A stretch of DNA of 64,000 nt from Candidatus Nanoarchaeia archaeon (GTDB lineage Archaea; Nanobdellota; Nanobdellia; Woesearchaeales; UBA525). Every line of letters begins with the position of its first letter. Positions within the stretch are counted from its first letter, which is position 1. Shown here piece after piece: positions 5,945-56,787 of this stretch. Location of the stretch: contig JANQNB010000018.1 of assembly GCA_028279755.1 (NCBI GenBank), positions 134,611 through 198,610 of the forward strand. The letters run 5' to 3'. The notes beneath the pieces were generated by a model. That model was given only the letters and a program-made list of their open reading frames with translations. It was not told the DNA's origin and did no database searches. The position numbers and the translations under genes are program-made.

Positions 5945-6898
5945 ATGCGGCTTGATCTCAAAGACAAAAAGCTCCTCTTTGAACTCAGCAAGAACTCACG
6001 ACTGCCCTACACGAAACTAGGGCGCCTCACCAGAATGTCGAAACAAGTCGTGGAATACCGCATCAAACGGCTTCAGGAAGCGGGGATCATCCTCGGCTAC
6101 CTGACAGAGCTCAATTTCTCAGCCTATGGCCAACCAATAGTAGGCAGGGTCTACATGCAACTCCATAAGCTCGGTAGCAGGCGGGAACAACGCATCACAG
6201 CGCACCTGCACAACTTCGAGGAATGGAGCTTCTACGAGCGTTTAGACGGCCGATACGATCTCAACATCGCGATCATGGCAAGCACGCTGCAGGAATTCCA
6301 ACGAAAAGCCGACATGATTACGAAAGCCTTTCGCTCTGAAATCAGGGAAGAACATATCGTCATCCGCTACCAAGCATATCAATATGACTTCAAAGTCTTG
6401 CTGAACAGCAAGCAATCAGGAGAGTCCGCCATCGTCGATGAACGGCCTCCTGTGGCCTTGGATGAACTCGATGAAGCCATCCTGAAACAGCTCGTCAACA
6501 ATGCACGCATGGAAACCACGGAAATTGCGCATCGTCTCGATAAACCGTATGCAACTGTGCATGGGAGAATCCAACGTCTGATCTCCAAGGAAGTCATCAA
6601 ACGTTTCACAGTAGCGCTTGACTGGGAAAAAATGGGCTATCTCACAACGAGATTCCTCATCAACTTCGTGCATGTAGAGAATCATGAAGAGTTCCGGCAT
6701 TTCTGCCGAAATCATCCTAACATCACCTATCTTGTTTTTGCATTAGGAGCATGGAATGCAGAAATATATACCTGCTTCCCTTCAGTCAAAGCCTATCGCG
6801 CGTTTCGAGCAGAACTCAGGAACAAGTTCGGAAAACACATACGAAACATCGAGATGGTGGATGCGCTTTCCGCCCATCCTGCACAAGAGTTTTCGTGA
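5945..6898 (+). CDS. Tandem-duplicated Lrp/AsnC-family transcriptional regulator with two HTH+RAM modules.
   Basis: Two AsnC-type HTH segments are present: LDLKDKKLLFELSKNSRLPYTKLGRLTRMSKQVVEYRIKRLQEAGII and LDELDEAILKQLVNNARMETTEIAHRLDKPYATVHGRIQRLISKEVI. Each is followed by a RAM-like domain. Confidence 0.8.
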   Translation: MRLDLKDKKLLFELSKNSRLPYTKLGRLTRMSKQVVEYRIKRLQEAGIILGYLTELNFSAYGQPIVGRVYMQLHKLGSRREQRITAHLHNFEEWSFYERLDGRYDLNIAIMASTLQEFQRKADMITKAFRSEIREEHIVIRYQAYQYDFKVLLNSKQSGESAIVDERPPVALDELDEAILKQLVNNARMETTEIAHRLDKPYATVHGRIQRLISKEVIKRFTVALDWEKMGYLTTRFLINFVHVENHEEFRHFCRNHPNITYLVFALGAWNAEIYTCFPSVKAYRAFRAELRNKFGKHIRNIEMVDALSAHPAQEFS

Positions 6899-6950: not shown

Positions 6951-8621
6951 ATGTGTGTCCACATTCCTCGTCCTATGCCTTTCATCGAGAAACAAGTCAA
7001 GGGCAAGAAGGAGTATTACTATCTCACAAAGACCTCGAGAACAGGTGCAGGCTTCAAGAAAGAGCGAGTACGCTTGTCAGGCCCGAACCCTTCGAAAGCA
7101 GAACTGCGCGAGAAAAGCCAGCAATTGCGGAAACCGTTTTCTGTCCAACGGATCAGTGATTCCCGGATTCCGAACAAGAAGATGATCTGGGAGCGACCCT
7201 GCTATCCATTCTTGGTCTGGTGCGCTGCCGAGGCGCTTGTCGCACCCCAGAAAGAAGAGTTTGGCCATAGCTGGGGCCACACGCAAGGCTTTTTCCAGAA
7301 CGGTATGGTCAAATATGTCTGGGATCGAAAACACATGATCAAGTCCGGCATCCACATCATCAACAATCTGCTCGAGGAGGAGTATTTCAAGACCAAGAAG
7401 AAGCGACACGATGATGCATTGCAGAGATTGAAGCGAACCTACAAGCGATTCCCAGAACTCGCGCGTCTGAGCGACAGGGAACTCTGCAAAGAACAGCTGG
7501 CATTCTACGCAACCTTCATGGAGTGGTGGGGCAAAAGCCAGGTTGCCGAATGCATCGCTCTTGGTGCTGAATACCTTCTCGGCGCAGAAGTCGATGAGAA
7601 TACGGTGAGCATCATCACAACGCCTTCCGAGAAGTCATACTCCACAATAGAAGAGGAAGAGTTGCTCGCAATAGCTGATGAGATCATGAAAGATCAACGA
7701 CTGCGATCGATGTTCGAGAAAGAGACCGTTACTCTCAAGAGCTTTCCAGCACTGCGCACACGACTGGAAAGACATGTTCAGGACTATTACTGGCTGCAAA
7801 ACAATTACGCAACAATCACCTATTGTGATATACAGTACTTCATCCAGGAGATCAAGAAGATCCTGGCACAGAAGAAAGCGCCCAGGAAAATCATCCAGGA
7901 CATGAACTCCCGGTTGGACCGGATCAGAAAAGAGAAAAAAGAAATGATTGCAAAGCTCGACCTTCCGGACGAGTATCTCGGCTTGCTGAGACTGGTCGAC
8001 TACTACAGTGCTCTCCAAGACATGAGAAAAGCGATCTCTATAGAGGGGAATTACTATACATATCGGTTCATTGAAGAACTTTCGAGACGTACCGGAATCA
8101 ACAGCAATCTGCTCCTGTTCATCTCACCCTTCGAATACGCTGACATACTGAAGGGAAGCTTTGATGTCTCAGAGCTGACAAGAAGAAAGACCGGATGCGT
8201 CATGATCATCACTGAGCGATTCGTGCACATGCATACTGGAGAGAAATATGAGAACGCGTACAAGAAAATACGCGGTCCAGAGACGAGTGAGATCACAGAA
8301 TTCGAAGGAAAACGAGCAGAAGGAGGCACAGTCACCGGCAGAGCCAAAATCGTCCTCGACCCCAGGAACGCGCCAGCATTCAAAGACGGAGACATCCTGG
8401 TCACGACAATGACCAGCCCTGATTTCCTCACCTTCATGAAAAAATCAAAAGCCATCATCACCGACGAAGGCGGCATCACCTGCCACGCAGCGATCATCTC
8501 ACGCGAACTCGGCATTCCGTGCATTATCGGAACCAAGATCGCAACTGAAGTTCTGAAAGATAACGATTTCATTGAAGTCAACGCGAACCACGGCCTCGTG
8601 CGCATTGTGTCGAGAGCATAA
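6951..8621 (+). CDS. PEP-utilizing enzyme (His swivel domain) family protein, paralog 1. The N-terminal ~400 aa is uncharacterised.
   Basis: The C-terminus reads GRAKIVLDPRNAPAFKDGDILVTTMTSPDFLTFMKKSKAIITDEGGITCHAAIISRELGIPCIIGT, which is the mobile PEP-utilizers domain. The N-terminal region shares YY..R..YF-type motifs with the 40822..42282 paralog. The true start may be internal, for example M at 6975. Confidence 0.75.
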   Translation: MCVHIPRPMPFIEKQVKGKKEYYYLTKTSRTGAGFKKERVRLSGPNPSKAELREKSQQLRKPFSVQRISDSRIPNKKMIWERPCYPFLVWCAAEALVAPQKEEFGHSWGHTQGFFQNGMVKYVWDRKHMIKSGIHIINNLLEEEYFKTKKKRHDDALQRLKRTYKRFPELARLSDRELCKEQLAFYATFMEWWGKSQVAECIALGAEYLLGAEVDENTVSIITTPSEKSYSTIEEEELLAIADEIMKDQRLRSMFEKETVTLKSFPALRTRLERHVQDYYWLQNNYATITYCDIQYFIQEIKKILAQKKAPRKIIQDMNSRLDRIRKEKKEMIAKLDLPDEYLGLLRLVDYYSALQDMRKAISIEGNYYTYRFIEELSRRTGINSNLLLFISPFEYADILKGSFDVSELTRRKTGCVMIITERFVHMHTGEKYENAYKKIRGPETSEITEFEGKRAEGGTVTGRAKIVLDPRNAPAFKDGDILVTTMTSPDFLTFMKKSKAIITDEGGITCHAAIISRELGIPCIIGTKIATEVLKDNDFIEVNANHGLVRIVSRA

Positions 8622-8655: not shown

Positions 8656-8752
8656 GCCCCTGTAGTGTAGTCCGGCCAATCATACCGCCCTCTCGAGGTC
8701 GCTTCGGCGCCAGAGCAAGGCGGTGACTCGGGTTCGAATCCCGGCGGGGGCA
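8656..8752 (+). tRNA. tRNA-Glu (anticodon CUC) with a ~22-nt intron at 37/38.
   Basis: The acceptor strands GCCCCTG and CGGGGGC pair (one G-U) and are followed by discriminator A. The anticodon stem is CCGCC/GGCGG with loop CU-CUC-G, interrupted by AGGTCGCTTCGGCGCCAGAGCA. The T arm is TCGGG-TTCGAAT-CCCGG. A TATA box TTTAAAAA lies about 25 nt upstream. No CCA is encoded. Confidence 0.75.
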
Positions 8753-8840: not shown

Positions 8841-9206
8841 CTATTTATCGCATTTATCGCAGATGCCTTTCACTTCAAGCTGGAAGCTTGTGATGCTTCC
8901 TGGTATCTTGTTCTTCAAGAAATCGATATTATCGATGTCGAAGTGGATAACTTTTCCTGTCTTCTCACATTCGAAATGGCAGTGGCTTCGCTTGCCTTTT
9001 GAGTAGACGCTCTTTCTGTTGCAGGTATATGTATGTAACTCTCCATTCTTCACCGCCTCTGCAAGGTAGCGGTAGATAGTCGCCATCCCGATGTTTTGGA
9101 GTGTACTTCGTGCATGGAGGTCTGCCGCGCTGAAGAAGGAGGTAGTCTTCTCCACTTCTTGTCGAATCAGCTCTTTCTGTTTTGTCGCTCTGCTAGCCCG
9201 CACCAT
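8841..9206 (-). CDS. Fur-family metalloregulator (Fur/Zur/PerR-like).
   Basis: Translation MVRASRATKQKELIRQEVEKTT...HCHFECEKTGKVIHFDIDNIDFLKNKIPGSITSFQLEVKGICDKCDK shows the Fur fold with a C-terminal Cys/His metal site. The ATG at 9206 is preferred over the TTG at 9224. Confidence 0.8.
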   Translation of the reverse strand: MVRASRATKQKELIRQEVEKTTSFFSAADLHARSTLQNIGMATIYRYLAEAVKNGELHTYTCNRKSVYSKGKRSHCHFECEKTGKVIHFDIDNIDFLKNKIPGSITSFQLEVKGICDKCDK

Positions 9207-9260
9207 AATGAGAACGAGAATCAATAAGATATATAAATATTATGGAAAGCCGGAAGATTT
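9207..9260. promoter_or_regulatory. Divergent promoter region between the Fur-family gene and the CobW-family gene, containing a Fur-box-like operator and a TATA element.
   Basis: AATGAGAACGAGAATCAATAAGATATATAAAT shares AATGAGAA..GAGAATCAATAAGAT[A/T]TATAA with the element at 10619..10652. It resembles the Fur consensus GATAATGATAATCATTATC. Confidence 0.55.
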
Positions 9261-9267
9261 GATACTC

Positions 9268-10572
9268 ATGAAAGGATTAACATTACTAGGAGGCGCTCTC
9301 GGTGCAGGAAAAACAACATTCCTTACCAACGTGCTTCTTGCAGATGGATTTACACCAAAAAGAGAAGGCATAATCGTCATGGACGCTGCCGGCAAGATTG
9401 ATTATTCCATACTAGAAAACTTGGCAGAGAGCAAGGGTGTGAGAATCGCCGACGCAACATCAGGATGTACTGTGTGCGATGGGCCGGAAAGCGCTATCAG
9501 GGAACTCGCAACAATGCAGGATCTTGACCACGTCGTCATTGAACTCTCAGGTCAGATGCCACTCACCACCATGATGAGAGGTCTCGCCTCAGAAGGAGTT
9601 GTAGATCCACAAACTTTCTACCTCCTCGACCCGAGGAACTTCACACTTGTGCAGGCGGCAGACGAAGTACCCTATGCGCACGTCATCGGGATCACAAAGA
9701 GCGATGTAACTCCCGATGTTGTTCGTCACGCACCAAATGCGAGAATAGTGAGAATCCATGAGCAAGGAGTATATACTTTGGATAAACTCTTTGAAGGAGT
9801 CGACACAGCACCTTTTGCAGTTGCGTCACACCATCACCACCATCACGGATCGAAGGGGATGGTCACAAAATGGTTTGGCAAAGTGCTGAACCCTTACCAT
9901 ACGGCTGATCAAATTGAAGCAATCATCAAATCCTTGGCTGGAAGATACGATCGCATCAAAGGCCACGTTGCACTCGATGCAGAGAGGATCCTCAGGCTCC
10001 ATACCGTATTCGGCGAATGCACATTCAAGGTTGAGCAGGACGCAAGTGCTGGCAATGGGACATTGCTCTTCGTAAACCAATCAGAGCGCTACTTCCCAGA
10101 AGCCCAGGCAGTAGAGGATGCACACCCGTTTATTGATAGTCCTGACATCGTTCCTGTTCTGAGACGAGGAAGTACACGTGAGAGCTTCGTCAATTATGTC
10201 GGCATGGCACTTGCAGCTCAGCAGTATGATGATGCAATGGGTGCAGCAGCGCAACTCCGCTACGAGCAGGAGGATGAATCCCTGGTCGTGGAAACACTCC
10301 CAGCATACGCCGAAGGCAAGCTGAAACTTATCCAAAGTGGTCAGCACTCCCGGTCTCAACGACTCCTCGAAGGAATGAGTGCCTTATGGTTCTTACAGGA
10401 GAACCCTGGCGTCGTCGAACCCACGATTCAGCATACTTTGGAGAGAATCTATTGTCGGGACTTCGCAGCAATGACTGGAGCCGACTGGAAAGAGATCGAG
10501 CGTGGGTCGGATCCGGAAGAGACAAGATGGTACATCAAGGATGTCCATCAGAAGATTCCGACAAGGTCGTAA
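9268..10572 (+). CDS. COG0523 G3E-family GTPase (CobW/YciC/ZigA-like putative zinc metallochaperone) with a His-rich linker.
   Basis: The sequence MKGLTLLGGALGAGKTTFLTNVLL carries the P-loop, GCTVCDG carries the CxCC motif, and a run of six His (HHHHHH) is present. The ATG at 9268 is preferred over the longer ORF from 9091. Confidence 0.85.
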   Translation: MKGLTLLGGALGAGKTTFLTNVLLADGFTPKREGIIVMDAAGKIDYSILENLAESKGVRIADATSGCTVCDGPESAIRELATMQDLDHVVIELSGQMPLTTMMRGLASEGVVDPQTFYLLDPRNFTLVQAADEVPYAHVIGITKSDVTPDVVRHAPNARIVRIHEQGVYTLDKLFEGVDTAPFAVASHHHHHHGSKGMVTKWFGKVLNPYHTADQIEAIIKSLAGRYDRIKGHVALDAERILRLHTVFGECTFKVEQDASAGNGTLLFVNQSERYFPEAQAVEDAHPFIDSPDIVPVLRRGSTRESFVNYVGMALAAQQYDDAMGAAAQLRYEQEDESLVVETLPAYAEGKLKLIQSGQHSRSQRLLEGMSALWFLQENPGVVEPTIQHTLERIYCRDFAAMTGADWKEIERGSDPEETRWYIKDVHQKIPTRS

Positions 10573-10618
10573 GGATCGAGTTCTCTAGAAGAGCAAAAAG
10601 AAAGGGAAATACTTTAGT

Positions 10619-10652
10619 CTTATTGATAATGAGAATCAATAAGATTTATAAC
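10619..10652. promoter_or_regulatory. Fur-box-like palindrome overlapping the TATA box of the CooC-like operon.
   Basis: TCTTATTGATAATGAGAATCAATAAGATTTATAAC contains the inverted repeat CTTATTGA/TCAATAAG. GATAATGAGAATCAATAAG matches the Fur-box consensus at 15 of 19 positions, and TTTATAAC follows directly. A second partial copy ATTGATTATTGAGAA lies at 10690..10704. Confidence 0.6.
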
Positions 10653-10728
10653 ATACACATCATTTGAGGCGAGGGATAGAGATGATGCTATTGATTATTG
10701 AGAAATATACAAAGAAGAGGTGGATTCG

Positions 10729-11673
10729 ATGAGAGTCGTCTTTCTCGGCAAAGGCGGGAGCGGGAAGACCTCACTCTCAGGCGCATTTATCGAGTTTGCC
10801 ACAAAAAAAGGGCCTGTGCTCGCAATCGACGCTGATGTGAATCGTCACCTCCCCTCATTCCTCGAGATCGAGAGAAAGAGAGATGTCGGAGATGCCTATG
10901 AAGAGGTTGCCTCCTATCTCTACGGGAAACGAGAGGATATCGAACAAAAACATATGGTCGCAACAACACCCCCCTCACGGAACTCACACTTCATTCGAGT
11001 GGAGAAGGATGATCCCTTCCTCAATCGCTTCTGCTCCAAGGGAGAAGGAACGCATCTCCTCGTCGTCGGCAACTACCATGAGAAGGATGTTGGGCACACG
11101 TGCTATCATGGGAAATTGAATGTTCTGGAGATGATCTATCACCACCTGCTCGACACTGAGGATGAGATAGTAGTTGCAGACGCAACAGCAGGAATCGACA
11201 ATATCGGGACATCGCTCTACTTCTGCTACGATCTCTCAGTTTTCGTCGTCGAGCCGACTATAAGGAGCATCGAGGTCTGCAAGGAGTATCTCGCTCTCGC
11301 AGAGCAGAACGAAGTGGCAGTGGCCATTGTTGGAAACAAGATTGAGACGCCTGAAGACGAGCAGTTCATCGAACGAGAACTCGAGGGCGCAAGGATTCTC
11401 TGCCACATTCCCTATACACAGGAGTTGAAAGCGTACGAACAGGGCGATCTCTCTGCAAAGGAGCGCTTTTCGTCGATGGTCGTACCACAGATGGAGATCA
11501 TCCGCAACGCACTTGCAGAAGAGAAAAGAGATTGGAACGCCTATTATGAGCGGCTCCTCAAGACCCATAAAGTGAACAGCATCGAATGGTGGGACTCCTA
11601 TTACGGCGAACCTATCTCCGAGCAGCAGGATCCGACATTCACCTATCAAGAAGTAATGGAGGGAAAGAAATGA
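10729..11673 (+). CDS. CooC/MinD/ParA-type P-loop ATPase (deviant Walker A).
   Basis: MRVVFLGKGGSGKTSLSGAFIEFAT carries a KGGxGKT-type deviant Walker A. The stop overlaps the next gene's start (ATGA at 11670). Confidence 0.7.
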   Translation: MRVVFLGKGGSGKTSLSGAFIEFATKKGPVLAIDADVNRHLPSFLEIERKRDVGDAYEEVASYLYGKREDIEQKHMVATTPPSRNSHFIRVEKDDPFLNRFCSKGEGTHLLVVGNYHEKDVGHTCYHGKLNVLEMIYHHLLDTEDEIVVADATAGIDNIGTSLYFCYDLSVFVVEPTIRSIEVCKEYLALAEQNEVAVAIVGNKIETPEDEQFIERELEGARILCHIPYTQELKAYEQGDLSAKERFSSMVVPQMEIIRNALAEEKRDWNAYYERLLKTHKVNSIEWWDSYYGEPISEQQDPTFTYQEVMEGKK

Positions 11674-13100
11674 AGATAGAGGCGAAAAGCTCAGAGCTGC
11701 TCCGAACCCTCCTTGAGAAGAAGGACTTCCTCTTCGAAGCAGCCAGCCTTCACCAAGGACCAGTCCATCTCCTCCTCCCAGAGCAGCTTTCACGCAATGT
11801 CGAAGAGGTGAAGAGTCTCCTAGAAGAGTTTGACTGTATCAATCATATCTTCTTCGCTCACAAGTCAACAAAGTCGTTGGCCCTGCTCAAAGAGGCCCGG
11901 TTTGCCGGCATCAATCTCGACGTCGCCTCTCTCGGCGAGTTGACCAATGGACTTCGCGCAGGATTCACCGGGACGCAGATCGAGTGCACAGGTCCCAAAT
12001 CCTCTGAGTATCTCGAGGCAGCATTGCTCCATGGCTGCGCAATAAGCGTTGATTCACTCTCCGAGCTTCAGAAAATCGTACGTTTCACAAAGAGATTGCC
12101 GATCAAGCAAGCATCCATTCTGCTCAGGATTGGAGATCTCTCTCCCACTCATAAGGTACTCAAGAAAAGGGATTCGCTGTTCGGCCTTCCGAGGACAGCG
12201 CTTCCCGAAGCCTATGCTATGCTGAAGGAGAATCCGCATATCACTTTCAAAGGAGTCCACTTTCACAATGACGTACGCGATGCTGAGACACAGGCAGGCA
12301 CACTCTTATGCGCGATTGATATCCTCGTAGAGGCGATACAGCAGGGCTTTGAACCAACCATCATCAACATCGGCGGCGGATTGCGGACCGCCCAATTTGC
12401 AAACAAGCAACAAGTGCGGGCGTTTATCCAGCATCTGGAAGAAGGAGTCTCCAAACAAGAGCCTCTTGAGACCTGGCGCAATTACTCATATGGTATCTAC
12501 CTGAATCAACGCGGAACCATCTCGGGAAGGAAAGGACTGAGCGGAAAAATTGAAGTTCCTGAATACACCTCATTTCTTCGAGCCCTGCTCACAACACAAG
12601 GGAGAGATGGACGTCCACTCCTGGAGTTCATGGCCGAGAATATGATCGACCTCGCTCTCGAACCCGGCTTTCTTCTCTCCCAACAATGTGGACTGACACT
12701 TCTCCGTGTCGAGTCGGTCAACCAAGGAGCTGAAGGAAGACTCATCGTCAAGGTGGCAGGAAACATGTACAATCTCTCCTCTCAGATGGTGGAGCAGTTG
12801 ACAGACCCGATTCTCATCTCCAAAACAAAAGAGAAGAGCCCGTGCAGTGCTTTGATTGCAGGAAACCTGTGCAGAGAAGAAGATATGCTCTCGAAACGGT
12901 TCATTCCTTTTGAGCAGCGACCAAAGCAAGGAGACCTCATCTGTTTTCTGAACACCGCAGCGTACGCGGGAGGTTTCGAAGACGGAACGCCAATCCTGCA
13001 ACCAGAAGGAAAGCGCTTTGTCGTCACATTCAAGGATGGAAAGCCAACCCTTCTTTCAGAGGAGCTCTACTCTCCCTGGGAGGAACGAGATGATCTATAA
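11670..13100 (+). CDS. Type III (alanine-racemase-fold) PLP-dependent decarboxylase of the Orn/DAP/Arg decarboxylase family.
   Basis: FFAHKSTKSLALLKEARFAGINLDVASLGEL resembles the N-terminal TIM-barrel region with the PLP lysine. It is about 477 aa. Its start overlaps the upstream stop (ATGA). Confidence 0.65.
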   Translation: MKIEAKSSELLRTLLEKKDFLFEAASLHQGPVHLLLPEQLSRNVEEVKSLLEEFDCINHIFFAHKSTKSLALLKEARFAGINLDVASLGELTNGLRAGFTGTQIECTGPKSSEYLEAALLHGCAISVDSLSELQKIVRFTKRLPIKQASILLRIGDLSPTHKVLKKRDSLFGLPRTALPEAYAMLKENPHITFKGVHFHNDVRDAETQAGTLLCAIDILVEAIQQGFEPTIINIGGGLRTAQFANKQQVRAFIQHLEEGVSKQEPLETWRNYSYGIYLNQRGTISGRKGLSGKIEVPEYTSFLRALLTTQGRDGRPLLEFMAENMIDLALEPGFLLSQQCGLTLLRVESVNQGAEGRLIVKVAGNMYNLSSQMVEQLTDPILISKTKEKSPCSALIAGNLCREEDMLSKRFIPFEQRPKQGDLICFLNTAAYAGGFEDGTPILQPEGKRFVVTFKDGKPTLLSEELYSPWEERDDL

Positions 13101-14400
13101 CTCTCCTTTCGAGCTGATCGGGAATACTCCCCTCCTGCTTATCCCTGAAGAGGTGCATGGGCTGCCAAAGACGAAAGTCTATGCAAAGCTCGAGTATATG
13201 AACCCGTTTGGCTCGCTCAAGGACCGGATTGCTCAGGGGATGCTCGAACCCCATCTCGATATGCTCAAGGAGAAGGGATTGACAGTGCTTGAGGCATCGA
13301 GCGGCAATACTGCCAAGGCTCTCTGCATCCTCTCAGGATGCTTGGGAGTGCCATTCAAGACCGTCACCAACAGGATCAAAGTGCCCGGAATTCGAATGAT
13401 GCTCCAGACCCTCGGCGCTGAAATCGAAGAATTGCCCGGTCTCAGTGACTGTCCTGATCCGCTTGATCCGAACGATTATACGACAGTGGCATCCAATCTG
13501 GCCAAGAGCCATCCTGACAAGTATTTCTATACTGATCAATACTTCAATGAGCGAAATAGGGGAAGTCAAGAGTCGACAGGAGAGGAGATAGCTGCAGATC
13601 TCGAACGCGTCGATCACTTCTTTGCCTGCCTCGGTACTTGTGGTTCGTCGATGGGCGCCGGCAAGGTCCTGAAGGAGCGAATGGAGGATATCAAGATTCA
13701 TGGTGTTGTCGCCGCTGCTGGCCACCATCTTCCTGGTGGGAGGAACATGGAGGAACTCTGGGAGGTCGGCTTCTTCAGAAAGGATTTCTACTCATCAATT
13801 GAGAGCGGGACGACCCAAGAGGCCATTGATGCTATGCTTGAACTGAACAGGCGATGCGGCATGCTCTGTGGTCCAACAACAGGCCTCACCTACCATGCAC
13901 TCAAAGAGGCGTTGAAGCAAGTCCCAAGCGAGAAGGAGCGTGTTGCAGTTTTTATCGCGTGCGATAGAATCGATCCCTACATGCAGTACCTGAAGCAACA
14001 CCGTCCGGAGCTCTTCTCAAAAACTGGATCGGTGAGACCCACTGTGGATGGCCAAGCTGTCGAGGAGGTGATGCATACAGAGGAGATGACACCGGAGAAA
14101 CTGAAACAGATGCTTGATCAGGTTCTCCTCATAGATATTCGCGGTAATTTTGCCTTCCATCGTGGACATATTCCTGGCTCAATCAACATCCTGAACGAGG
14201 TCTTCACAATGATCGTCGAAGAGGGACCATCATTCCCAGAAAGGAAGATTGTCATCGTCTGTCCGAACGGCACCCTTTCCAAGAAGTACGCTTCCTTCCT
14301 CTCAGAACAGGGGTATGAAGCATACTCGGTAAAAAAAGGACTGCTCGGATGGAGAAAGGCAGGTTTCGCTCTCGAGAAGAGCAAGGAGTTGGGAGGATGA
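13090..14400 (+). CDS. Cysteine synthase/CBS-family PLP enzyme fused to a C-terminal rhodanese domain.
   Basis: The N-terminus MIYNSPFELIGNTPLL...KLEYMNPFGSLKDR is the PALP fold (CysK/CysM-like). The C-terminus LIDIRGNFAFHRGHIPGSINI...VIVCPNGTLSKKYA is the rhodanese active-site Cys loop. It overlaps the upstream gene by 11 nt. Confidence 0.75.
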   Translation: MIYNSPFELIGNTPLLLIPEEVHGLPKTKVYAKLEYMNPFGSLKDRIAQGMLEPHLDMLKEKGLTVLEASSGNTAKALCILSGCLGVPFKTVTNRIKVPGIRMMLQTLGAEIEELPGLSDCPDPLDPNDYTTVASNLAKSHPDKYFYTDQYFNERNRGSQESTGEEIAADLERVDHFFACLGTCGSSMGAGKVLKERMEDIKIHGVVAAAGHHLPGGRNMEELWEVGFFRKDFYSSIESGTTQEAIDAMLELNRRCGMLCGPTTGLTYHALKEALKQVPSEKERVAVFIACDRIDPYMQYLKQHRPELFSKTGSVRPTVDGQAVEEVMHTEEMTPEKLKQMLDQVLLIDIRGNFAFHRGHIPGSINILNEVFTMIVEEGPSFPERKIVIVCPNGTLSKKYASFLSEQGYEAYSVKKGLLGWRKAGFALEKSKELGG

Positions 14401-14990
14401 TGCAACCGTTGAAGAAGGTGTTGGCACTCACGATCCTTCCTTTCTTGTTGCTTCTAGAGTTGACTCCTCTCGTTCGGAACAGCGTGCTCGCGTTTTTCGG
14501 AGGTGTTCTCATCCTGATTTTCGCGCCGCAGCTGATAGTTTTTGCAGTCTTCCTCTTCCTTGTCATCTTTATACAATTCCTCAACATGGCGATCGAGCCG
14601 ATTAGCTATCTTGGCATAGAGCTGGGCTACTTCTTCACTTTCATGTCAGGCTACCTCTTCGGCCCAATGTCTGGCTTCTGGTTCGGCGTTCTCTTCCTCA
14701 TCGCGCATCTTGTCCAACAATTACAGTGGGAATCCAACCCCTTCGATCTCCTTTTCAAAATCTTCGGCATTCCCGGCCTCGGTTACCTAGCAGGTTTGGT
14801 CAGCGGTATTAATGTAGTCTTCGCTGGCACGACTGCTGTAGTCGGTATCGCGATAGCCATTTTCATCATCAACATGTTGAGCAGTTTCGAGTCTGATCTG
14901 ACTGTTTTCTTTTGGTGCGTCGGTTTGGTCTTCTTCAACTTTATCCTGTTCAAAAGCCTTGCCCCGGTTATGACTGGCTTGCTCGGATAA
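14397..14990 (+). CDS. Small polytopic membrane protein, last gene of the coupled operon.
   Basis: MMQPLKKVLALTILPFLLLLELTPL... is strongly hydrophobic. The ATG overlaps the upstream TGA (ATGA). Confidence 0.6.
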   Translation: MMQPLKKVLALTILPFLLLLELTPLVRNSVLAFFGGVLILIFAPQLIVFAVFLFLVIFIQFLNMAIEPISYLGIELGYFFTFMSGYLFGPMSGFWFGVLFLIAHLVQQLQWESNPFDLLFKIFGIPGLGYLAGLVSGINVVFAGTTAVVGIAIAIFIINMLSSFESDLTVFFWCVGLVFFNFILFKSLAPVMTGLLG

Positions 14991-20746: not shown

Positions 20747-22381
20747 ATGAAACGATTACTCTGGTGCCTCGCACTCCTGCTGTGCCCGCTTGTCGTGAGT
20801 GCGGCATTCGACAGCAGCTCGTGGCAATACATGCAAGAGATCAGCGTCGATGCTGACGAACCGGTGAAGCTCGTCCTCGATCCGAGCCTGCTGGCCAATG
20901 CGCAGCTCGACGGGCACGACCTCCGCGTGACAGAAGACGCGGTCGAGATCCCGTACAAGCTCTCGTTGGAAGGCAGTGCAGAACAGCAACGAACCATTGC
21001 GAGCATGACTGCCTCGTCGACGCGGCCGGACTTCCGTTCAGTCTCGTATGCGCCGGTCAATATGATCGATGGTGACGCATCCAATAGCGAGGGCGCGTAT
21101 TTCCAGATCGACGGCACAGTCGATACGGAAGTCTCGTGGATCGTCGCAGACCTCAGCTCTTCTGTGTTGAGTACAAAAGCCCGGTTCACGCTTGGGAGCG
21201 CGCGCTTTACGCATGTCCAAGTCCAAGGCAGCAACGACCTCGCGTCGTGGACCTTGCTGAAGCAGAAGACGAAAAGCGGCAGCCAGGTGAGCTACGCGCC
21301 GAGCAGCTTCCGCTACGTTCGCTTCACGCTCTGGCACAAGGGCGATCTCGTGATCAACGAGCTGACGATGTATGGCGAGAGCAGCGGCTGGCTCCTGTTC
21401 AACGCGCAGACCGGCAAGACCTACATGATCTATTACGGCAATGCGCAAGCAGGCGTGCCTGACTATGATCTTGAAGGATTGTATACTGTCGCGACCACGC
21501 CCTTCGTGTACACGCTCGGCGAGTGGGTGAACCCGTTGTTTGTCGGCGACGCTGATGAAGACGGCGTCGGCGTGGGCGACAATTGTCCGTCAGTCGCCAA
21601 TCCTTCGCAGCTTGACAGCGATAATGATGATCTTGGCGATGACTGCGACAATTGCCCTGGCGTGAGCAACCCTGGCCAAGGGGACCGTGATCACGACGGT
21701 GTGGGCGATGCGTGCGACAACTGCGCAGCGATGTACAATCCCAACCAGTATGACGACAACTTCAATGATATCGGCTGGGTATGCGACGACGAGGATCGCG
21801 ATGGCGTGGTGAACAGCGAAGACAATTGCGTGCCTGGCGCAAACCGTGATCAGCAGGACGTCGACCGTGACGGGGTTGGCGATGCGTGCGAGGACGACGA
21901 CGGCGACGGGGCTGCAAACTATATGGATAATTGCCCAGAGCTTGCGAACGCTGACCAGGCTGACAGCGAAACAGAGAATGGCAGGCTGGTTGGCGATGGT
22001 GTTGGCGATGCGTGCGACAATTGCGTGAACGTCAGGAATGCGGATCAGCGCGATACTGATGAAGATGGTGTCGGAGATGCCTGCGAGGACGACGACCAGG
22101 ACGACGTGCGCAATGATGCTGATAACTGCCGGCTTGTCGCGAATGCTGACCAGGTCGACTGGGACAGCGACGGCTTGGGCGATGCCTGCGACAATTGCCC
22201 GGAACATAAGAACCCGAATCAGCGCGATGTCGACAGCGACGGGCTTGGCGATGCCTGCGACGAGACTGAGAGCAGGCTGCTCGAGCAGAAGTGGATCGTC
22301 TGGAGCATCATCATCCTCGCGATACTCGTGCTCGGCTTCTTCGCCTACCGGATGTACCAGACGCCGGGAGGGAAGGAATGA
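20747..22381 (+). CDS. Secreted, membrane-anchored surface protein with an N-terminal discoidin-like domain and about 10 thrombospondin type-3 (Ca-binding) repeats.
   Basis: There is a signal peptide [19 protein letters not shown]. Repeats of the form [24 protein letters not shown] recur, and a C-terminal TM helix is present. The DNA shows matching internal repeats. Confidence 0.75.
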
Positions 22382-40821: not shown

Positions 40822-42282
40822 ATGACAACGTACAAAACACTCGGGACCTACTCTATCAGTTTGCTGCATTACAGCCTGTTCTATGAGGATGAGCGAAAGC
40901 TCGTGTTTCACCAACCGATTCGCGTGCACAAGGGCATCGAATGCGAATACTACTTCGCCGAAGAAGACGGGAAGCAGTTCATGGCCACGATGCGGAAGAA
41001 GCTCGAGGATCCGAAATTCATCTACGAGTTCCACGCGCAGCACGAGAAGGACTGGGAAGCCCTGATGCGATTCATCGAAGAGATCATCCAGGAGCAGCCG
41101 ACCGAGAAGCTCGGCGAGCTCTTCGAACAATACTGGCACCTGCTCCAGCAGAGCCAGCCATTGGGCGACTGCTTCATCACTGTGGACAACGTCTACATGG
41201 AAGGCACCAGGCAGTGGGTCGAGCAGCGCCTGACAGCGCTTGGCCGTGCAGACGAGATCAACCATGCCATGACCATCCTGAGCTGGCCATGGAAGAACTT
41301 CGAGACCCTCGAGCAGGAGATCGAGTTCTACGCGTTGGCAAAGAAATTCAAAGGCAAGGACGTGCCGACAACGTTCGCCGAATTCCGGGAGAAGATCGAT
41401 GAAGACTTGCTGCTCGCGTTCGACAAGCATCTGGAGCGCTGGTGCTGGATTCCGCACTGGTACGACAACGAGCCATTCGATGAACAATTCCTCTTGGACC
41501 AGTTGCACAAGGCATTGAAAGAGGACGTTGATGCGCGCTACGACGACTTGTACAACAAGACTGCTGAGATCAAGAAGGAAGCTGAAGCGCTTGTGAAAGA
41601 CTTGCAGCCTGACGAGAAAATGCAGGAATTGATCGATGGGCTCCGCGAGTTCACGTATTTCCGGACAGCGCTTGACCTCCACACGAGCCGCGCATTGTAT
41701 TATGCGCGTCCGTTCTACGAACAGATAGCTAAAGCCTTAGGCGTCACCTTCTATGACCTGAAACTCCTTGTGGCTGAAGAGATCATCGACTTCCTCAAAG
41801 GGAATAAGGACACAGCCCTGATCAAGGGACTCCTTGCTGCACGCAAGGACATGGTCATCGACATGTATGAAGGCGATGAGCAGACCGTGCTTGTGGGTGA
41901 AGCTGCTGAAAAACTGTACAAAGACGTGCTGGCGAAGCTTGAGAAAGAAGACACCGGCACAGCCGACAGCCTCACTGGTGTCGGAGCCAGCCCTGGCGTG
42001 GCAGAAGGACCTGCACGCGTCATCACGTCGGTGCAGGAAGTCTCGACTGTGCAGGAAGGCGATGTTCTTGTCGTGCCGTCGACCAGCATCGATTTCCTCG
42101 TCGCGATGAAGAAAGCGGTGGCGATCGTCACAGAAGTGGGCGGGCTCACAAGCCACGCTGCAATCGTGTCGCGCGAACTCGGCATCCCGTGCGTGGTAAA
42201 CACGCAAGTCGCGTGCGAGAAGCTGCAAACCGGGCAGCAGATCAAGGTCGATGGCAAAGCAGGCACAGTAGAGGTCGTCTAA
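40822..42282 (+). CDS. PEP-utilizing enzyme (His swivel domain) family protein, paralog 2.
   Basis: The C-terminus GVGASPGVAEGPARVITSVQ...GDVLVVPSTSIDFLVAMKKAVAIVTEVGGLTSHAAIVSRELGIPCVV is the mobile His domain. The N-terminal region is paralogous to 6951..8621 (LREFTYFRTALDLHTSRALYYARPF against LRLVDYYSALQDMRKAISIEGNYYTYRF). Confidence 0.75.
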   Translation: MTTYKTLGTYSISLLHYSLFYEDERKLVFHQPIRVHKGIECEYYFAEEDGKQFMATMRKKLEDPKFIYEFHAQHEKDWEALMRFIEEIIQEQPTEKLGELFEQYWHLLQQSQPLGDCFITVDNVYMEGTRQWVEQRLTALGRADEINHAMTILSWPWKNFETLEQEIEFYALAKKFKGKDVPTTFAEFREKIDEDLLLAFDKHLERWCWIPHWYDNEPFDEQFLLDQLHKALKEDVDARYDDLYNKTAEIKKEAEALVKDLQPDEKMQELIDGLREFTYFRTALDLHTSRALYYARPFYEQIAKALGVTFYDLKLLVAEEIIDFLKGNKDTALIKGLLAARKDMVIDMYEGDEQTVLVGEAAEKLYKDVLAKLEKEDTGTADSLTGVGASPGVAEGPARVITSVQEVSTVQEGDVLVVPSTSIDFLVAMKKAVAIVTEVGGLTSHAAIVSRELGIPCVVNTQVACEKLQTGQQIKVDGKAGTVEVV

Positions 42283-56669: not shown

Positions 56670-56787
56670 TGGGGCTACGAGGATTTGAACCCCGGTTGCC
56701 AGGTGTTTTGATCTCGGATCAAAACCCGCGAGGACTTTGTCCGAGCATGCCCAAACCTGGAGTGATACCAAGCTACACTATAGCCCC
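56670..56787 (-). tRNA. tRNA-Pro (anticodon UGG) with a ~45-nt intron at 37/38.
   Basis: In tRNA sense the acceptor is GGGGCTA/TAGCCCC plus A. The anticodon stem is CCAGG/CCTGG with loop UU-UGG-G then an intron. The T arm is CGGGG-TTCAAAT-CCTCG. Confidence 0.7.

Follow-up and report, generated by a model that had tools for sequence, protein, structure and literature searches.

Related systems

Aspergillomarasmine A (AMA) synthase of the fungus Aspergillus oryzae (PDB 8H4H and 8H4Q) and Fda4 of Fusarium poae each join a CysK-fold PLP domain to a C-terminal rhodanese-like domain, and both form C-N bonds from O-phosphoserine (PMC12751119); AMA itself binds zinc with a Kd of about 0.2 nM (PMC11672702). 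An enzyme of the same architecture is encoded in the cluster described here, which lies in a 64 kb stretch of DNA (the window) from a DPANN-type archaeon, and a serine-kinase-like gene is found beside some prokaryotic clusters of this kind, O-phosphoserine being the substrate of the characterised enzymes. Identity to AMA synthase is, however, only about 24%. The prokaryotic family also differs in carrying an extra cysteine, C121, in a shared insert (131 of 140 members), in being paired with a type III decarboxylase (122 of 132 loci), usually together with a SufS-like desulfurase or P-loop NTPases, and in lying under predicted metal-responsive operators.

Metallophore clusters controlled by Zur, among them those for coelibactin, EDDS and pseudopaline, are an established class (PMC6103462). 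The present cluster resembles the [S,S]-EDDS aes genes of Amycolatopsis japonicum, the pseudopaline and staphylopine systems and coelibactin in its predicted control by a metal-starvation repressor, in its inferred product, a small chelator built from amino acids, and, in actinobacterial relatives, in the presence of a family-5 SBP ABC importer and an MFS transporter in the operon. Staphylopine uptake uses the same SBP family, and the EDDS cluster is reported to pair a CysK-like with a DAP-decarboxylase-like enzyme as well (Spohn et al., 2016). It differs from that class in having no SbnB-like, nicotianamine-synthase-like, opine-dehydrogenase or NRPS gene, whereas the system does include a rhodanese fusion, a SufS-like enzyme and CooC-like or COG0523-like NTPases. 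To our knowledge no metallophore pathway has been described in DPANN archaea or CPR bacteria, where this cluster occurs.

SbnA and SbnH of staphyloferrin B biosynthesis are an O-phosphoserine-dependent CysK-fold enzyme and a type III PLP decarboxylase, and a pair of the same folds, with the substrate inferred, is encoded here. The sequence-only reading had drawn this analogy, which can be sharpened: SbnA has no rhodanese domain, and among characterised relatives AMA synthase, which makes a zinc chelator, is the closest to combine both domains. A staphyloferrin-like system as such was not upheld, the cluster having neither an SbnB partner nor NIS synthetases.

The two NTPases of the cluster may be compared with the COG0523 zinc metallochaperones (YjiA, YeiR, ZigA and ZagA), with which one shares a P-loop G3E GTPase domain, a Cys motif and a His-rich tract, and with the nickel insertase CooC, with which the other shares the deviant Walker A of the CooC/MinD class. 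Zur-regulated COG0523 genes are known (PMC6103462), and the COG0523-like and CooC-like genes are here likewise under predicted metal-responsive control. Both window proteins are nevertheless very divergent; the COG0523-like protein lacks a CobW_C Pfam match and carries CxxC instead of CxCC, while the CooC-like protein has C-Y-H where CooC has its CXC motif, and no CODH is encoded nearby. Genes of the COG0523 or CooC type are not known to have a precedent inside a PLP-enzyme operon.

Gene content of the cluster

The six genes proposed in the sequence-only reading were all confirmed in place, as were their domains, the His6 run and the three overlaps of start and stop codons; only the starts of the COG0523-like, CooC-like and Fur genes were adjusted. 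The Fur-family regulator (8841-9206, minus strand; 121 aa, matching the 121-aa product on record; PF01475) starts at ATG 9206 and is divergent from the gene of a COG0523-like G3E GTPase (9268-10572, plus strand; 434 aa; PF02492). The start of the latter is probably at 9268 and not at 9091; this start takes in the P-loop and agrees with the 434-aa NCBI product.

Four genes follow on the plus strand, encoding a CooC/MinD-type deviant-Walker-A ATPase (10729-11673; 314 aa; PF01656), a DAP-decarboxylase-like type III PLP decarboxylase of the alanine-racemase fold (11670-13100; 476 aa; PF02784 and PF00278), an AMA-synthase-like PLP beta-replacement enzyme of the CysK fold with a GlpE-like rhodanese domain (13090-14400; 436 aa; PF00291 and PF00581) and a small polytopic membrane protein of a lineage-restricted family (14397-14990; 197 aa). 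They overlap exactly, by ATGA at 11670-11673, by 11 nt at 13090-13100 and by ATGA at 14397-14400. For the CooC-like gene the most likely start is not GTG 10720 but ATG 10729, which has GAGGTG ahead of it. The cluster is far beyond chance, given the decarboxylase/CysK-rhodanese order in 122 of 132 loci and two operator cores where none is expected. No published description of it was found, and its core appears to be undescribed.

Regulator and operators

The regulator matches PF01475 (E 1e-12); its NCBIfam matches to PerR and Fur are weak and all far under the cut-offs, and its subtype (Zur, Fur, Nur or PerR) was not resolved. Repeat and pattern searches recovered two operator copies, neither assigned to a strand. 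The first (9205-9230) has an imperfect left arm and is followed by the AT-rich, TATA-like ATATATAAATA at 9231-9241. This element (9205-9241 in all) is common to the divergent Fur and COG0523-like genes, the spacing read off the sequence being about 30 nt from ATATATAAATA to the Fur ATG (9206) and about 32 nt to the COG0523 ATG (9268). The second copy, upstream of the four-gene operon (10619-10651 in all), is a perfect palindrome, CTTATTGAT-N7-ATCAATAAG, at 10619-10643, with a TATA-like TTTATAA at 10645-10651. It agrees with the classical Fur-box consensus, as generally known, at 15 of 19 positions.

The two operator-plus-TATA sites form a 31-nt direct repeat with 87% identity. A pattern search of the 64 kb window gave two occurrences of the 20-nt operator core against zero expected, both of them inside the cluster, and the operator-plus-TATA element was not found elsewhere in the window. 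In the orthologous operon of a Woesearchaeota relative (L082), the motif recurs upstream of the CooC-like gene. The operators abut the TATA-like boxes of both promoters; promoter function and binding by the regulator are inferred from sequence alone. A lack of co-regulation between the downstream genes and the Fur-box promoter had been named beforehand as a possible refutation, and the result favours the proposal, since the operator of the Fur/COG0523 promoter is repeated in front of the four-gene operon. That the two adjacent transcription units make up one metal-starvation regulon is part of the main reading and shares its probability of roughly 0.5.

Bacterial loci have a different palindrome, TGCAAC-N3-GTTGCA, at the operon start, with 15 matches in 2.33 Mb. 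Ten of these (nine without redundancy, as L086 and L087 are one locus) sit where the first gene of the operon starts. In L006 one match is 310 nt upstream of the first gene and another at the start of Fur-ZnuA-ZnuC-ZnuB, while two matches, in L117 and L119, precede a DsrE-like gene that is followed by a ZIP zinc transporter. Actinobacterial loci show Zur-box-like sites at the operon start. The sister cluster in L170, on the other hand, has a NikR regulator; as the subtype of the window regulator is also unresolved, zinc is inferred only from related loci and nickel remains open.

The PLP enzymes

The CysK-rhodanese fusion is well supported by Pfam (PALP, E 1e-47; Rhodanese, E 2e-14). K44 and the rhodanese cysteine C391 are invariant in all 140 family members, and C121 is kept in 131. 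Its strongest HMM matches are to cysteine synthase models; the SbnA model gives E 8e-34, at 117 bits against an equivalog cut-off of 350. When the AF2 model (pLDDT 89.8) was compared with the PDB by Foldseek, AMA synthase was the top match (8H4H and 8H4Q), both in the apo form and with O-phosphoserine, and SbnA structures were also among the fold matches. A P.PND insert, VPGxR, CD..PY and the rhodanese cysteine are common to this family and AMA synthase and are absent from ordinary CysK, which also lacks a rhodanese domain. The enzyme is a prokaryotic relative of AMA synthase by homology, its substrate and product being inferred.

The decarboxylase matches the lysA model (E 1e-33) with a score far under the cut-off, and in the PDB it is closest to DAP decarboxylases (E 3e-16). 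The catalytic motifs AhK.N, EPG and GNLCxExD are conserved in an alignment of 119 family members.

NTPases and membrane protein

The COG0523-like protein (GTPase domain PF02492, E 6e-12) carries the P-loop GALGAGKTT, GCTVCDG and R.KG, and has a long unassigned C-terminal half; HHHHHH is found at residues 188-193 (nt 9829-9846). Its best PDB match, to YjiA, is weak (E 7e-3). For the CooC-like ATPase, whose PF01656 domain is of the CbiA/MinD type, the best PDB match by sequence is CooC (3kje, E 1.5e-8). A 42-sequence alignment of its family conserves GKGGSGKT, DAD.N, D..AG.D, NK and an invariant G..CYH (TCYH at nt 11098-11109 in the window), and a paralogue in L003 has a His/Cys-rich tail.

The membrane protein has no Pfam or NCBIfam match and belongs to a family with only 5 representatives among 1.84 billion proteins; homologues of 39-40% identity close the same cluster in L082/83 and L170. 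Among AF2/Foldseek matches only the ECF S-components PanT and ThiT reach a TM of about 0.5, with E-values that are not significant. It may possibly be the transporter of the system.

Conservation across loci

Conservation was counted over 132 related loci of at least 37% identity, from DPANN archaea, CPR bacteria, Actinobacteria, Firmicutes and Cyanobacteria. In 122 of them the decarboxylase gene immediately precedes that of the CysK-rhodanese enzyme. Scattered orthologues would have refuted the proposal; they are instead clustered in more than 120 loci of many phyla. An adjacent SufS-like desulfurase with the catalytic motif R(S/T)GxHC occurs in 93 loci, and none is encoded anywhere in the 64 kb of the window. 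The CooC-like ATPase is directly upstream of the decarboxylase in 44, a Fur-family regulator is present in 21, and Znu components in up to 15, the zinc importers among the neighbours being ZnuABC or ZIP. COG0523-like genes are found in 11, with positional equivalents inside the operon in the closest relatives (L082/83, L084, L086, L115, L132 and L170), and a SerK-like gene (serine kinase N-domain) in 5.

Most actinobacterial loci keep the PLP pair without either NTPase, and in Nocardia an HMA-domain protein takes the place of the ATPase at the same position. In the Gordonia locus L067 the decarboxylase and CysK-rhodanese genes are accompanied by those of a family-5 SBP ABC importer, an MFS transporter, a SufS-like enzyme, two methyltransferases and two ATP-grasp ligases, of which one is DdaF-like (E 5e-54).

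Proposed function

The sequence-only reading, which saw here a metal-homeostasis or small-molecule biosynthesis cluster under Fur/Zur control and left the product unknown, is supported, the metal not being established. With a probability of roughly 0.5, the cluster is read as a metal-starvation operon, probably for zinc, that would make an AMA/EDDS-like chelator, perhaps sulfur-bearing, from O-phosphoserine, together with metallochaperone NTPases and a transporter. Gene content, operator duplication, cluster conservation and homology to AMA synthase are shown; substrate, product, metal and NTPase roles are inferred, zinc being the most likely metal and nickel possible.

In this view the metal-loaded Fur-family repressor would bind the palindromic operator at the Fur/COG0523 promoter and at that of the CooC-like, decarboxylase, CysK-rhodanese and membrane-protein genes, and metal scarcity would turn both on. 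The CysK-rhodanese enzyme would convert O-phosphoserine to a PLP-aminoacrylate and add a nucleophile. This would be an amino-acid amine, the kind of nucleophile used by AMA synthase, Fda4 and SbnA, or else sulfur delivered by the invariant rhodanese cysteine. The DAP-decarboxylase-like enzyme would then strip a carboxylate from the adduct, leaving a small ethylenediamine- or aminoethyl-type N/O(/S)-donor chelator of the AMA/EDDS class. The CooC-like ATPase, through its Cys-His motif, and the COG0523-like GTPase, through CxxC and His6, may bind metal and pass it between chelator and client proteins, and transport across the membrane, of the compound itself or of its complex with the metal, may fall to the small membrane protein.

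Several points count against the chelator reading. There is no known product, and the activity of the prokaryotic family is inferred without assay data. AMA synthase keeps the rhodanese cysteine although AMA has no sulfur, and the invariant cysteine therefore leaves C-N and C-S chemistry undecided. The SufS-like and DsrE-like partners suggest sulfur trafficking, which an AMA/EDDS-type product does not explain, and two P-loop NTPases of metallochaperone type occur in no known metallophore pathway. The window cluster lacks a recognisable exporter or importer except for the orphan membrane protein; DPANN and CPR cells may secrete no metallophores, and an intracellular ligand fits the data equally.

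Alternative explanations

A sulfur-trafficking or zinc-sparing role is the alternative that survives best and remains possible. The CysK-rhodanese enzyme would here be a persulfide-dependent O-phosphoserine sulfhydrylase, following the logic of CysM/CysO or SepCysS, with sulfur from the SufS-like desulfurase, and the decarboxylase might produce cysteamine or a similar thiol for use inside the cell and not a secreted chelator, for instance as a low-molecular-weight thiol metal buffer or in a metal-independent route to a sulfur metabolite. It is favoured by the rhodanese cysteine (140/140) and C121 (131/140), by the SufS-like gene with R(S/T)GxHC adjoining in 93 of 132 loci, by the DsrE-like gene under the same TGCAAC-N3-GTTGCA operator in L117 and L119, and by cysteine synthase models being the strongest HMM matches. 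Against it, taking sulfur from cysteine to make cysteine again would be futile, the derived inserts are shared with AMA synthase and not with CysK or CysM, and AMA synthase retains the same cysteine without sulfur chemistry. Moreover, actinobacterial loci have genes for an exporter, an importer and ATP-grasp ligases, as is typical where a natural product is secreted, and the window variant has no desulfurase in its 64 kb.

Metallocentre maturation, in which the CooC-like ATPase and COG0523-like GTPase would form the core and load a client enzyme, as yet unidentified, with Ni or Zn, and the PLP enzymes would build or modify a ligand of the metallocofactor, is unlikely. In its favour are the two metallochaperone-family NTPases with conserved Cys/His motifs and His-rich tracts inside the operon, the His/Cys-rich tail of the L003 paralogue, the Nocardia HMA-domain protein at the ATPase position and the NikR regulator in L170. 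However, no lineage conserves a candidate client metalloenzyme beside the cluster, no CODH, urease, hydrogenase or nitrile hydratase was found among the examined window genes, and most actinobacterial loci dispense with both NTPases while keeping the PLP pair.

An iron siderophore precursor under a true Fur, by an L-Dap or staphyloferrin-B-like pathway following the SbnA/SbnH analogy, is very unlikely: the Fur-box fit (15/19), the Fur and PerR model matches, the SbnA model match (E 8e-34) and SbnH being a decarboxylase of the same fold speak for it, but neither an SbnB/ornithine-cyclodeaminase-like gene nor an IucA/IucC NIS synthetase is present among the cluster genes, zinc is the metal to which COG0523 proteins are typically linked (PMC6103462), the linked transporters in related loci are ZnuABC and ZIP and not iron systems, and the actinobacterial loci carry Zur-like boxes.

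Gene content of the cluster

All six genes that the sequence-only reading had placed between 8841 and 14990 were found to be present. A Fur-family regulator gene (8841-9206, minus strand; PF01475, E 1e-12) is accompanied by genes for a COG0523-like (cobW-type) GTPase (9268-10572; PF02492, E 6e-12, more exactly 5.7e-12), a CooC/MinD-type ATPase (10729-11673; PF01656, with CooC 3kje as the best PDB match, E 1.5e-8), a type III PLP decarboxylase (11670-13100; PF02784 and PF00278, with DAP decarboxylases as the best PDB matches), a CysK-fold PLP enzyme fused to a rhodanese domain (13090-14400; PF00291, E 1e-47, and PF00581, E 2e-14) and a 197-aa membrane protein without a family match (14397-14990). 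The three gene overlaps in the same reading also held, namely ATGA at 11670, 11 nt at 13090-13100 and ATGA at 14397. The preferred starts at 9268, 10729 and 9206 agree with the products on record, and GAGGTG precedes the ATG of the CooC-like gene at 10729. No homologues of SufS-like, Znu, methyltransferase, ATP-grasp or HMA proteins were found in the window.

The left boundary of the cluster is formed by a tRNA-Glu (CTC) gene (8656-8752), located between a gene with a PEP-utiliser domain and the 3' end of the Fur gene; its length of 97 nt implies an intron. The host is an archaeon. Its promoters have a TATA-type appearance, and the closest orthologous operon was found in a Candidatus Woesearchaeota MAG.

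Operators and conservation of the cluster

A 31-nt direct repeat occurs at two sites, one between the Fur and COG0523 genes (9206-9236, TAATGAGAACGAGAATCAATAAGATATATAA) and the other upstream of the CooC-like gene (10621-10651, TATTGATAATGAGAATCAATAAGATTTATAA). The 20-nt operator core was encountered twice in 64 kb, both times at these sites, with zero occurrences expected, and a relaxed palindrome search of the 64 kb returned the same two sites only. In the second copy the palindrome is perfect (9-7-9), CTTATTGAT-N7-ATCAATAAG (10619-10643), and it abuts TTTATAA. The first copy abuts ATATATAAATA, an element some 30 nt away from both of the divergent start codons of Fur and COG0523; ATATATAAATA may act as a single TATA element in both directions, giving two leaderless transcripts, with the operator lying towards Fur, although this promoter function is inferred. 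Compared with the classical Fur-box consensus, the operator is identical at 15 of 19 positions. The presence of GCTTATTGATAATGAAAATCAGTAGC upstream of the CooC-like gene in a Woesearchaeota relative (L082) indicates that the operator is conserved. Palindrome scanning was misleading at one related locus (L008), where the gene lies at a contig edge. Both features of a Fur-family regulon, a regulator gene (PF01475) and palindromic operators at both promoters, are present in the cluster, and the regulator itself gave only weak PerR/Fur matches (NCBIfam).

Co-regulation of the downstream genes and clustering of their orthologues in related genomes had been named as tests in the sequence-only reading, and both were passed. 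The downstream operon has its own copy of the Fur/COG0523 operator, binding of the regulator being inferred, and the decarboxylase gene lies directly upstream of the CysK-rhodanese gene in 122 of the 132 loci (at least 37% identity) in which neighbours were counted; loci without it are mostly at contig ends. Homologues of the CysK-rhodanese enzyme number in the thousands, with identities of 48-64% in Woesearchaeota, Patescibacteria, Chloroflexi and Proteobacteria and around 42% in Nocardia, Streptomyces, Actinoplanes and Gordonia. Other neighbours recurring among the 132 loci are a SufS-like class V enzyme (93 loci; PF00266, E 2e-84; sufS model, E 1.5e-83), a CooC-like ATPase (44 loci, including 40 of the 56 low-GC loci), an HMA-domain protein at the CooC-like position (34 loci, Nocardia and relatives), a Fur-family gene (21 loci), Znu components (up to 15 loci) and a COG0523-like gene (11 loci). 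The COG0523-like and SufS-like genes are mutually exclusive, with no locus sharing both. Greedy ORF calling in high-GC actinobacterial loci generated two antisense artefact clusters (c3 and c7), which were excluded.

In the closest relatives a cobW-type gene forms part of the operon itself. The loci L082/83 run CooC-like, decarboxylase, cobW, CysK-rhodanese, methyltransferase and membrane protein; L084, another related locus, runs CooC-like, decarboxylase, CysK-rhodanese and cobW; and cobW is divergent in the related loci L086 and L001. The sister DPANN-type cluster (L170) has the order NikR, 133-aa ORF, two CooC-like genes, CysK-rhodanese, cobW, decarboxylase, methyltransferase and membrane protein. 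It was also observed that in L001 and L086 the SufS position is held by a 495-aa protein with faint similarity to cystathionine-beta-lyase. At L012:7132-8409, and likewise in 33 further loci of the Nocardia type, a protein of some 425 aa with a C-terminal CopZ-like HMA domain (MTCKHC) and an unassigned N-terminal region is encoded between the SufS-like and decarboxylase genes, which is the CooC-like position elsewhere.

A prokaryotic relative of AMA synthase

The CysK-rhodanese ORF combines an N-terminal fold-type II PLP domain (PF00291, residues 33-315) with a C-terminal rhodanese-like domain (PF00581, residues 358-447; ORF numbering). Its AF2 model (pLDDT 89.8) found its best Foldseek PDB matches in the synthase of aspergillomarasmine A (AMA), a fungal zinc chelator, both in the apo form (8H4H) and with O-phosphoserine (8H4Q), with 471-486 columns aligned. 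The family shares with AMA synthase an insert, the VPGxR and CD..PY motifs and the rhodanese loop cysteine, whereas the ordinary cysteine synthase 9nld lacks both of these PLP-domain motifs and is gapped at the insert; in the hmmsearch alignment the insert LPGLSDCPDPNDPND pairs with GGPSQ-PAPNDERG of AMA synthase. K44 and C391 are invariant in all 140 prokaryotic family sequences, and C121 is found in 131 of them.

AMA synthase condenses O-phosphoserine with L-aspartate; in Fda4, which likewise has a PLP domain and a rhodanese-like domain, the amino acid joined to O-phosphoserine is L-alanine (PMC12751119). By inference, the prokaryotic enzyme may likewise use O-phosphoserine to form a C-N bond with the amine of an amino acid. 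Five loci contain a small ParB-like gene similar to the N-terminal portion of SerK, an archaeal serine kinase, with a score well short of the cut-off (E 1.7e-9), and such a neighbour offers a weak and indirect hint of this substrate.

The decarboxylase partner has a barrel bearing the PLP lysine and a C-terminal sheet domain (PF02784 and PF00278), and the catalytic motifs AhK.N, EPG and GNLCxExD are all conserved among the 119 family members. It is not a LysA equivalog (116.6 versus 297.9 bits).

The membrane protein belongs to a rare family with five representatives (50% identity) among 1.84 billion proteins; a word-indexed homologue search recovered only the query, and exhaustive HMMER searching gave four relatives. 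Its closer members are the final gene of the cluster in L082 and L170, the distant ones lie elsewhere in DPANN genomes, and the motif G.E.GYF.T..MGY..GP.AG is conserved. Only two ECF S-components, PanT (4rfs_S) and ThiT (4tkr_B), reached a full-length TM of about 0.5 with the predicted fold (pLDDT 74), and the matches are non-significant (E 1.1 and 8.1).

The two NTPases

CxCC is the defining motif of COG0523 proteins. The window protein has a P-loop (GALGAGKTT), a hexahistidine run at residues 188-193 and CxxC (GCTVCDG) in place of the canonical CxCC; CxCC is present in L082 and L086, and CxxC in L084. Its G3E P-loop domain covers profile positions 3-159 of 180 in PF02492. No Pfam CobW_C match was obtained for it, and conservation among the cluster-associated proteins is limited to an R.KG motif and a His-rich linker. 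These cobW-like proteins keep the P-loop, CxxC or CxCC and R.KG, with a His-rich stretch in most, yet are only 18-24% identical, and the partners could therefore be recognized only through the Pfam annotation of the closest relatives. A tblastn search of the first 80 genome loci with the window COG0523 and membrane proteins gave no matches.

The CooC-like family (42 members) conserves the deviant Walker A motif GKGGSGKT and D..AG.D. The nickel-binding motif of CooC is CXC, which in this family is replaced by an invariant G..CYH; by analogy with CooC, this may be a Cys/His metal site at the dimer interface. The protein was also considered as a BioD/CobQ-type ligase, but the deviant Walker A and the Cys-His motif better suit a dimeric metallochaperone. 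Alphaproteobacterial loci encode a second, tandem CooC-like paralogue (L003:7460-8512) with a His/Cys-rich tail, HGHGGGHTCGSVCNHHRHEHS, of a type common in metallochaperones.

Links to metals in related loci

In CPR-type and other bacterial loci the palindrome TGCAAC-N3-GTTGCA lies between -35-like and -10-like boxes, with 15 hits in 2.33 Mb (loci L001, L002, L006, L054, L086, L088, L115, L117 and L119). Ten of the 15 are just upstream of the first gene of the operon, representing nine non-redundant loci (L086 and L087 being the same). In L006 one lies 310 nt before the first gene and another at the start of a Fur-ZnuA-ZnuC-ZnuB run (L006:10571), and two (L117:10445 and L119:10442) precede a DsrE-like gene whose downstream neighbour encodes a ZIP zinc transporter (PF02535, E 2e-48). 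The palindrome appears to be the Zur-type box of these bacterial lineages. Zur-box-like sites also occur at the operon start in actinobacterial loci of the ATP-grasp type, and in a Woesearchaeota locus (L007) the cluster adjoins ZnuB- and ZnuC-like genes and a ZnuA with a long His-rich insert.

The Gordonia locus (L067) has a layout typical of a metallophore cluster. It encodes import components (a family-5 SBP with a permease, an unassigned ORF at the second-permease position and a fused ATPase) together with the decarboxylase, CysK-rhodanese and SufS-like enzymes, two ATP-grasp ligases, of which one is DdaF-like (E 5e-54), one MFS transporter and a pair of methyltransferases. Metallophore clusters under Zur control form a known class, to which coelibactin, EDDS and pseudopaline belong (PMC6103462), and AMA binds zinc with a Kd of about 0.2 nM (PMC11672702).

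The sister cluster L170, however, has a NikR-family regulator (L170:284-667, minus strand; RHH and NikR_C, E 4e-15) instead of the Fur-family gene, and two tandem CooC-like genes. Nickel thus remains a possible metal, and because the regulator class is not fixed, the metal of the window cluster can only be inferred, between zinc-linked relatives (ZnuABC, ZIP and Zur-like boxes) on the one hand and NikR on the other.

Interpretation

The best-supported model is a metal-starvation regulon producing a small AMA/EDDS-like chelator, to which a probability of roughly 0.5 is assigned, the product and the enzyme activities being inferred. In this model O-phosphoserine would be converted in two PLP steps to the chelator, possibly a thiol-bearing one, and the regulon would further contribute a transporter and two NTPases that bind metal.

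A less likely alternative is a pathway for sulfur trafficking or for an internal thiol. That sulfur is mobilized in many versions of the cluster is argued from the SufS-like partner, which keeps its R(S/T)GxHC cysteine, and from nearby DsrE-like genes. The window variant has no sulfur-donor gene, since no SufS-like homologue is found there, and the invariance of the rhodanese cysteine C391 does not by itself prove sulfur transfer because AMA synthase retains this cysteine as well. A metallocentre maturation system, in which the two NTPases might serve a metalloenzyme, as their metallochaperone-like motifs would allow, appears unlikely; no CODH gene was found in the cluster or among the large window ORFs scanned. 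An iron siderophore module, despite the Fur-box likeness of the operator, is very unlikely, the transporters near the cluster in related loci being ZnuABC and ZIP.

Several specific routes were also rejected. The sequence-only reading had likened the two PLP enzymes to SbnA/SbnH; for a staphyloferrin-type pathway, neither an SbnB-type dehydrogenase nor an IucA/IucC-type NIS synthetase is present in the six window genes or the recurrent neighbour families. An opine metallophore was dismissed in the absence of CntL- or CntM-like genes, a cysteate/taurine route has no tie to metals, and coenzyme A/cysteamine salvage leaves the metal regulators unexplained.

The chelator model also permits a bolder reading, which is judged more likely to be wrong than right: that the cluster represents a so far unrecognized prokaryotic equivalent of the fungal AMA pathway, very widely distributed and making a new class of small zinc or nickel chelator, possibly thiol-bearing, with dedicated ATP- and GTP-driven metal-transfer proteins, in DPANN archaea, CPR bacteria, Actinobacteria, Firmicutes and Cyanobacteria. 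No description of this gene combination was found in the full-text literature searched. The general logic of a metal-repressed chelator pathway is already known; what appears to be new is the prokaryotic AMA-synthase-like enzyme, its constant decarboxylase partner, the NTPases embedded in the cluster and the presence in DPANN and CPR. To our knowledge, no earlier metallophore pathway is known in the ultra-small DPANN/CPR lineages, nor are metallochaperone NTPases known to be integral to a chelator pathway, and the bolder reading, if true, would provide the first case of each.

The trace-metal supply of minimal-genome CPR/DPANN organisms is essentially unknown, and a pathway of this kind, if real, would represent a widespread means of metal acquisition or buffering that they share with Nocardia, Streptomyces and oral Clostridia. 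Clinical interest in AMA stems from its ability to strip zinc from metallo-beta-lactamases, and if the reading is right, bacterial relatives of its synthase, with their decarboxylase and ligases, would provide new chelators of the aminocarboxylate or thiol type. COG0523 and the CooC-like ATPases, both of them metallochaperone families that are poorly understood, would gain a concrete biochemical setting. The cluster would likewise offer an archaeal Fur-family operator that is defined, clearly placed relative to its TATA element and open to direct testing.

Other features of the window

Just upstream of the cluster, a 317-aa protein (5945-6898) with two tandem Lrp/AsnC-type HTH modules constitutes a fused double regulator. 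Paralogous proteins encoded at 6951-8621 and 40822-42282 have only a C-terminal PEP-utilising 'mobile' (swivelling phosphohistidine) domain, with no Pfam match in the long N-terminal region. A 118-nt tRNA recognized by Rfam (56670-56787, minus strand; 48.6 bits) and not reported by ARAGORN is probably another intron-containing archaeal tRNA. The 544-aa protein encoded at 20747-22381, with thrombospondin type 3 repeats and an F5/8 type C (discoidin) domain, is likely to be a surface or adhesion protein, as is frequently seen in DPANN archaea.
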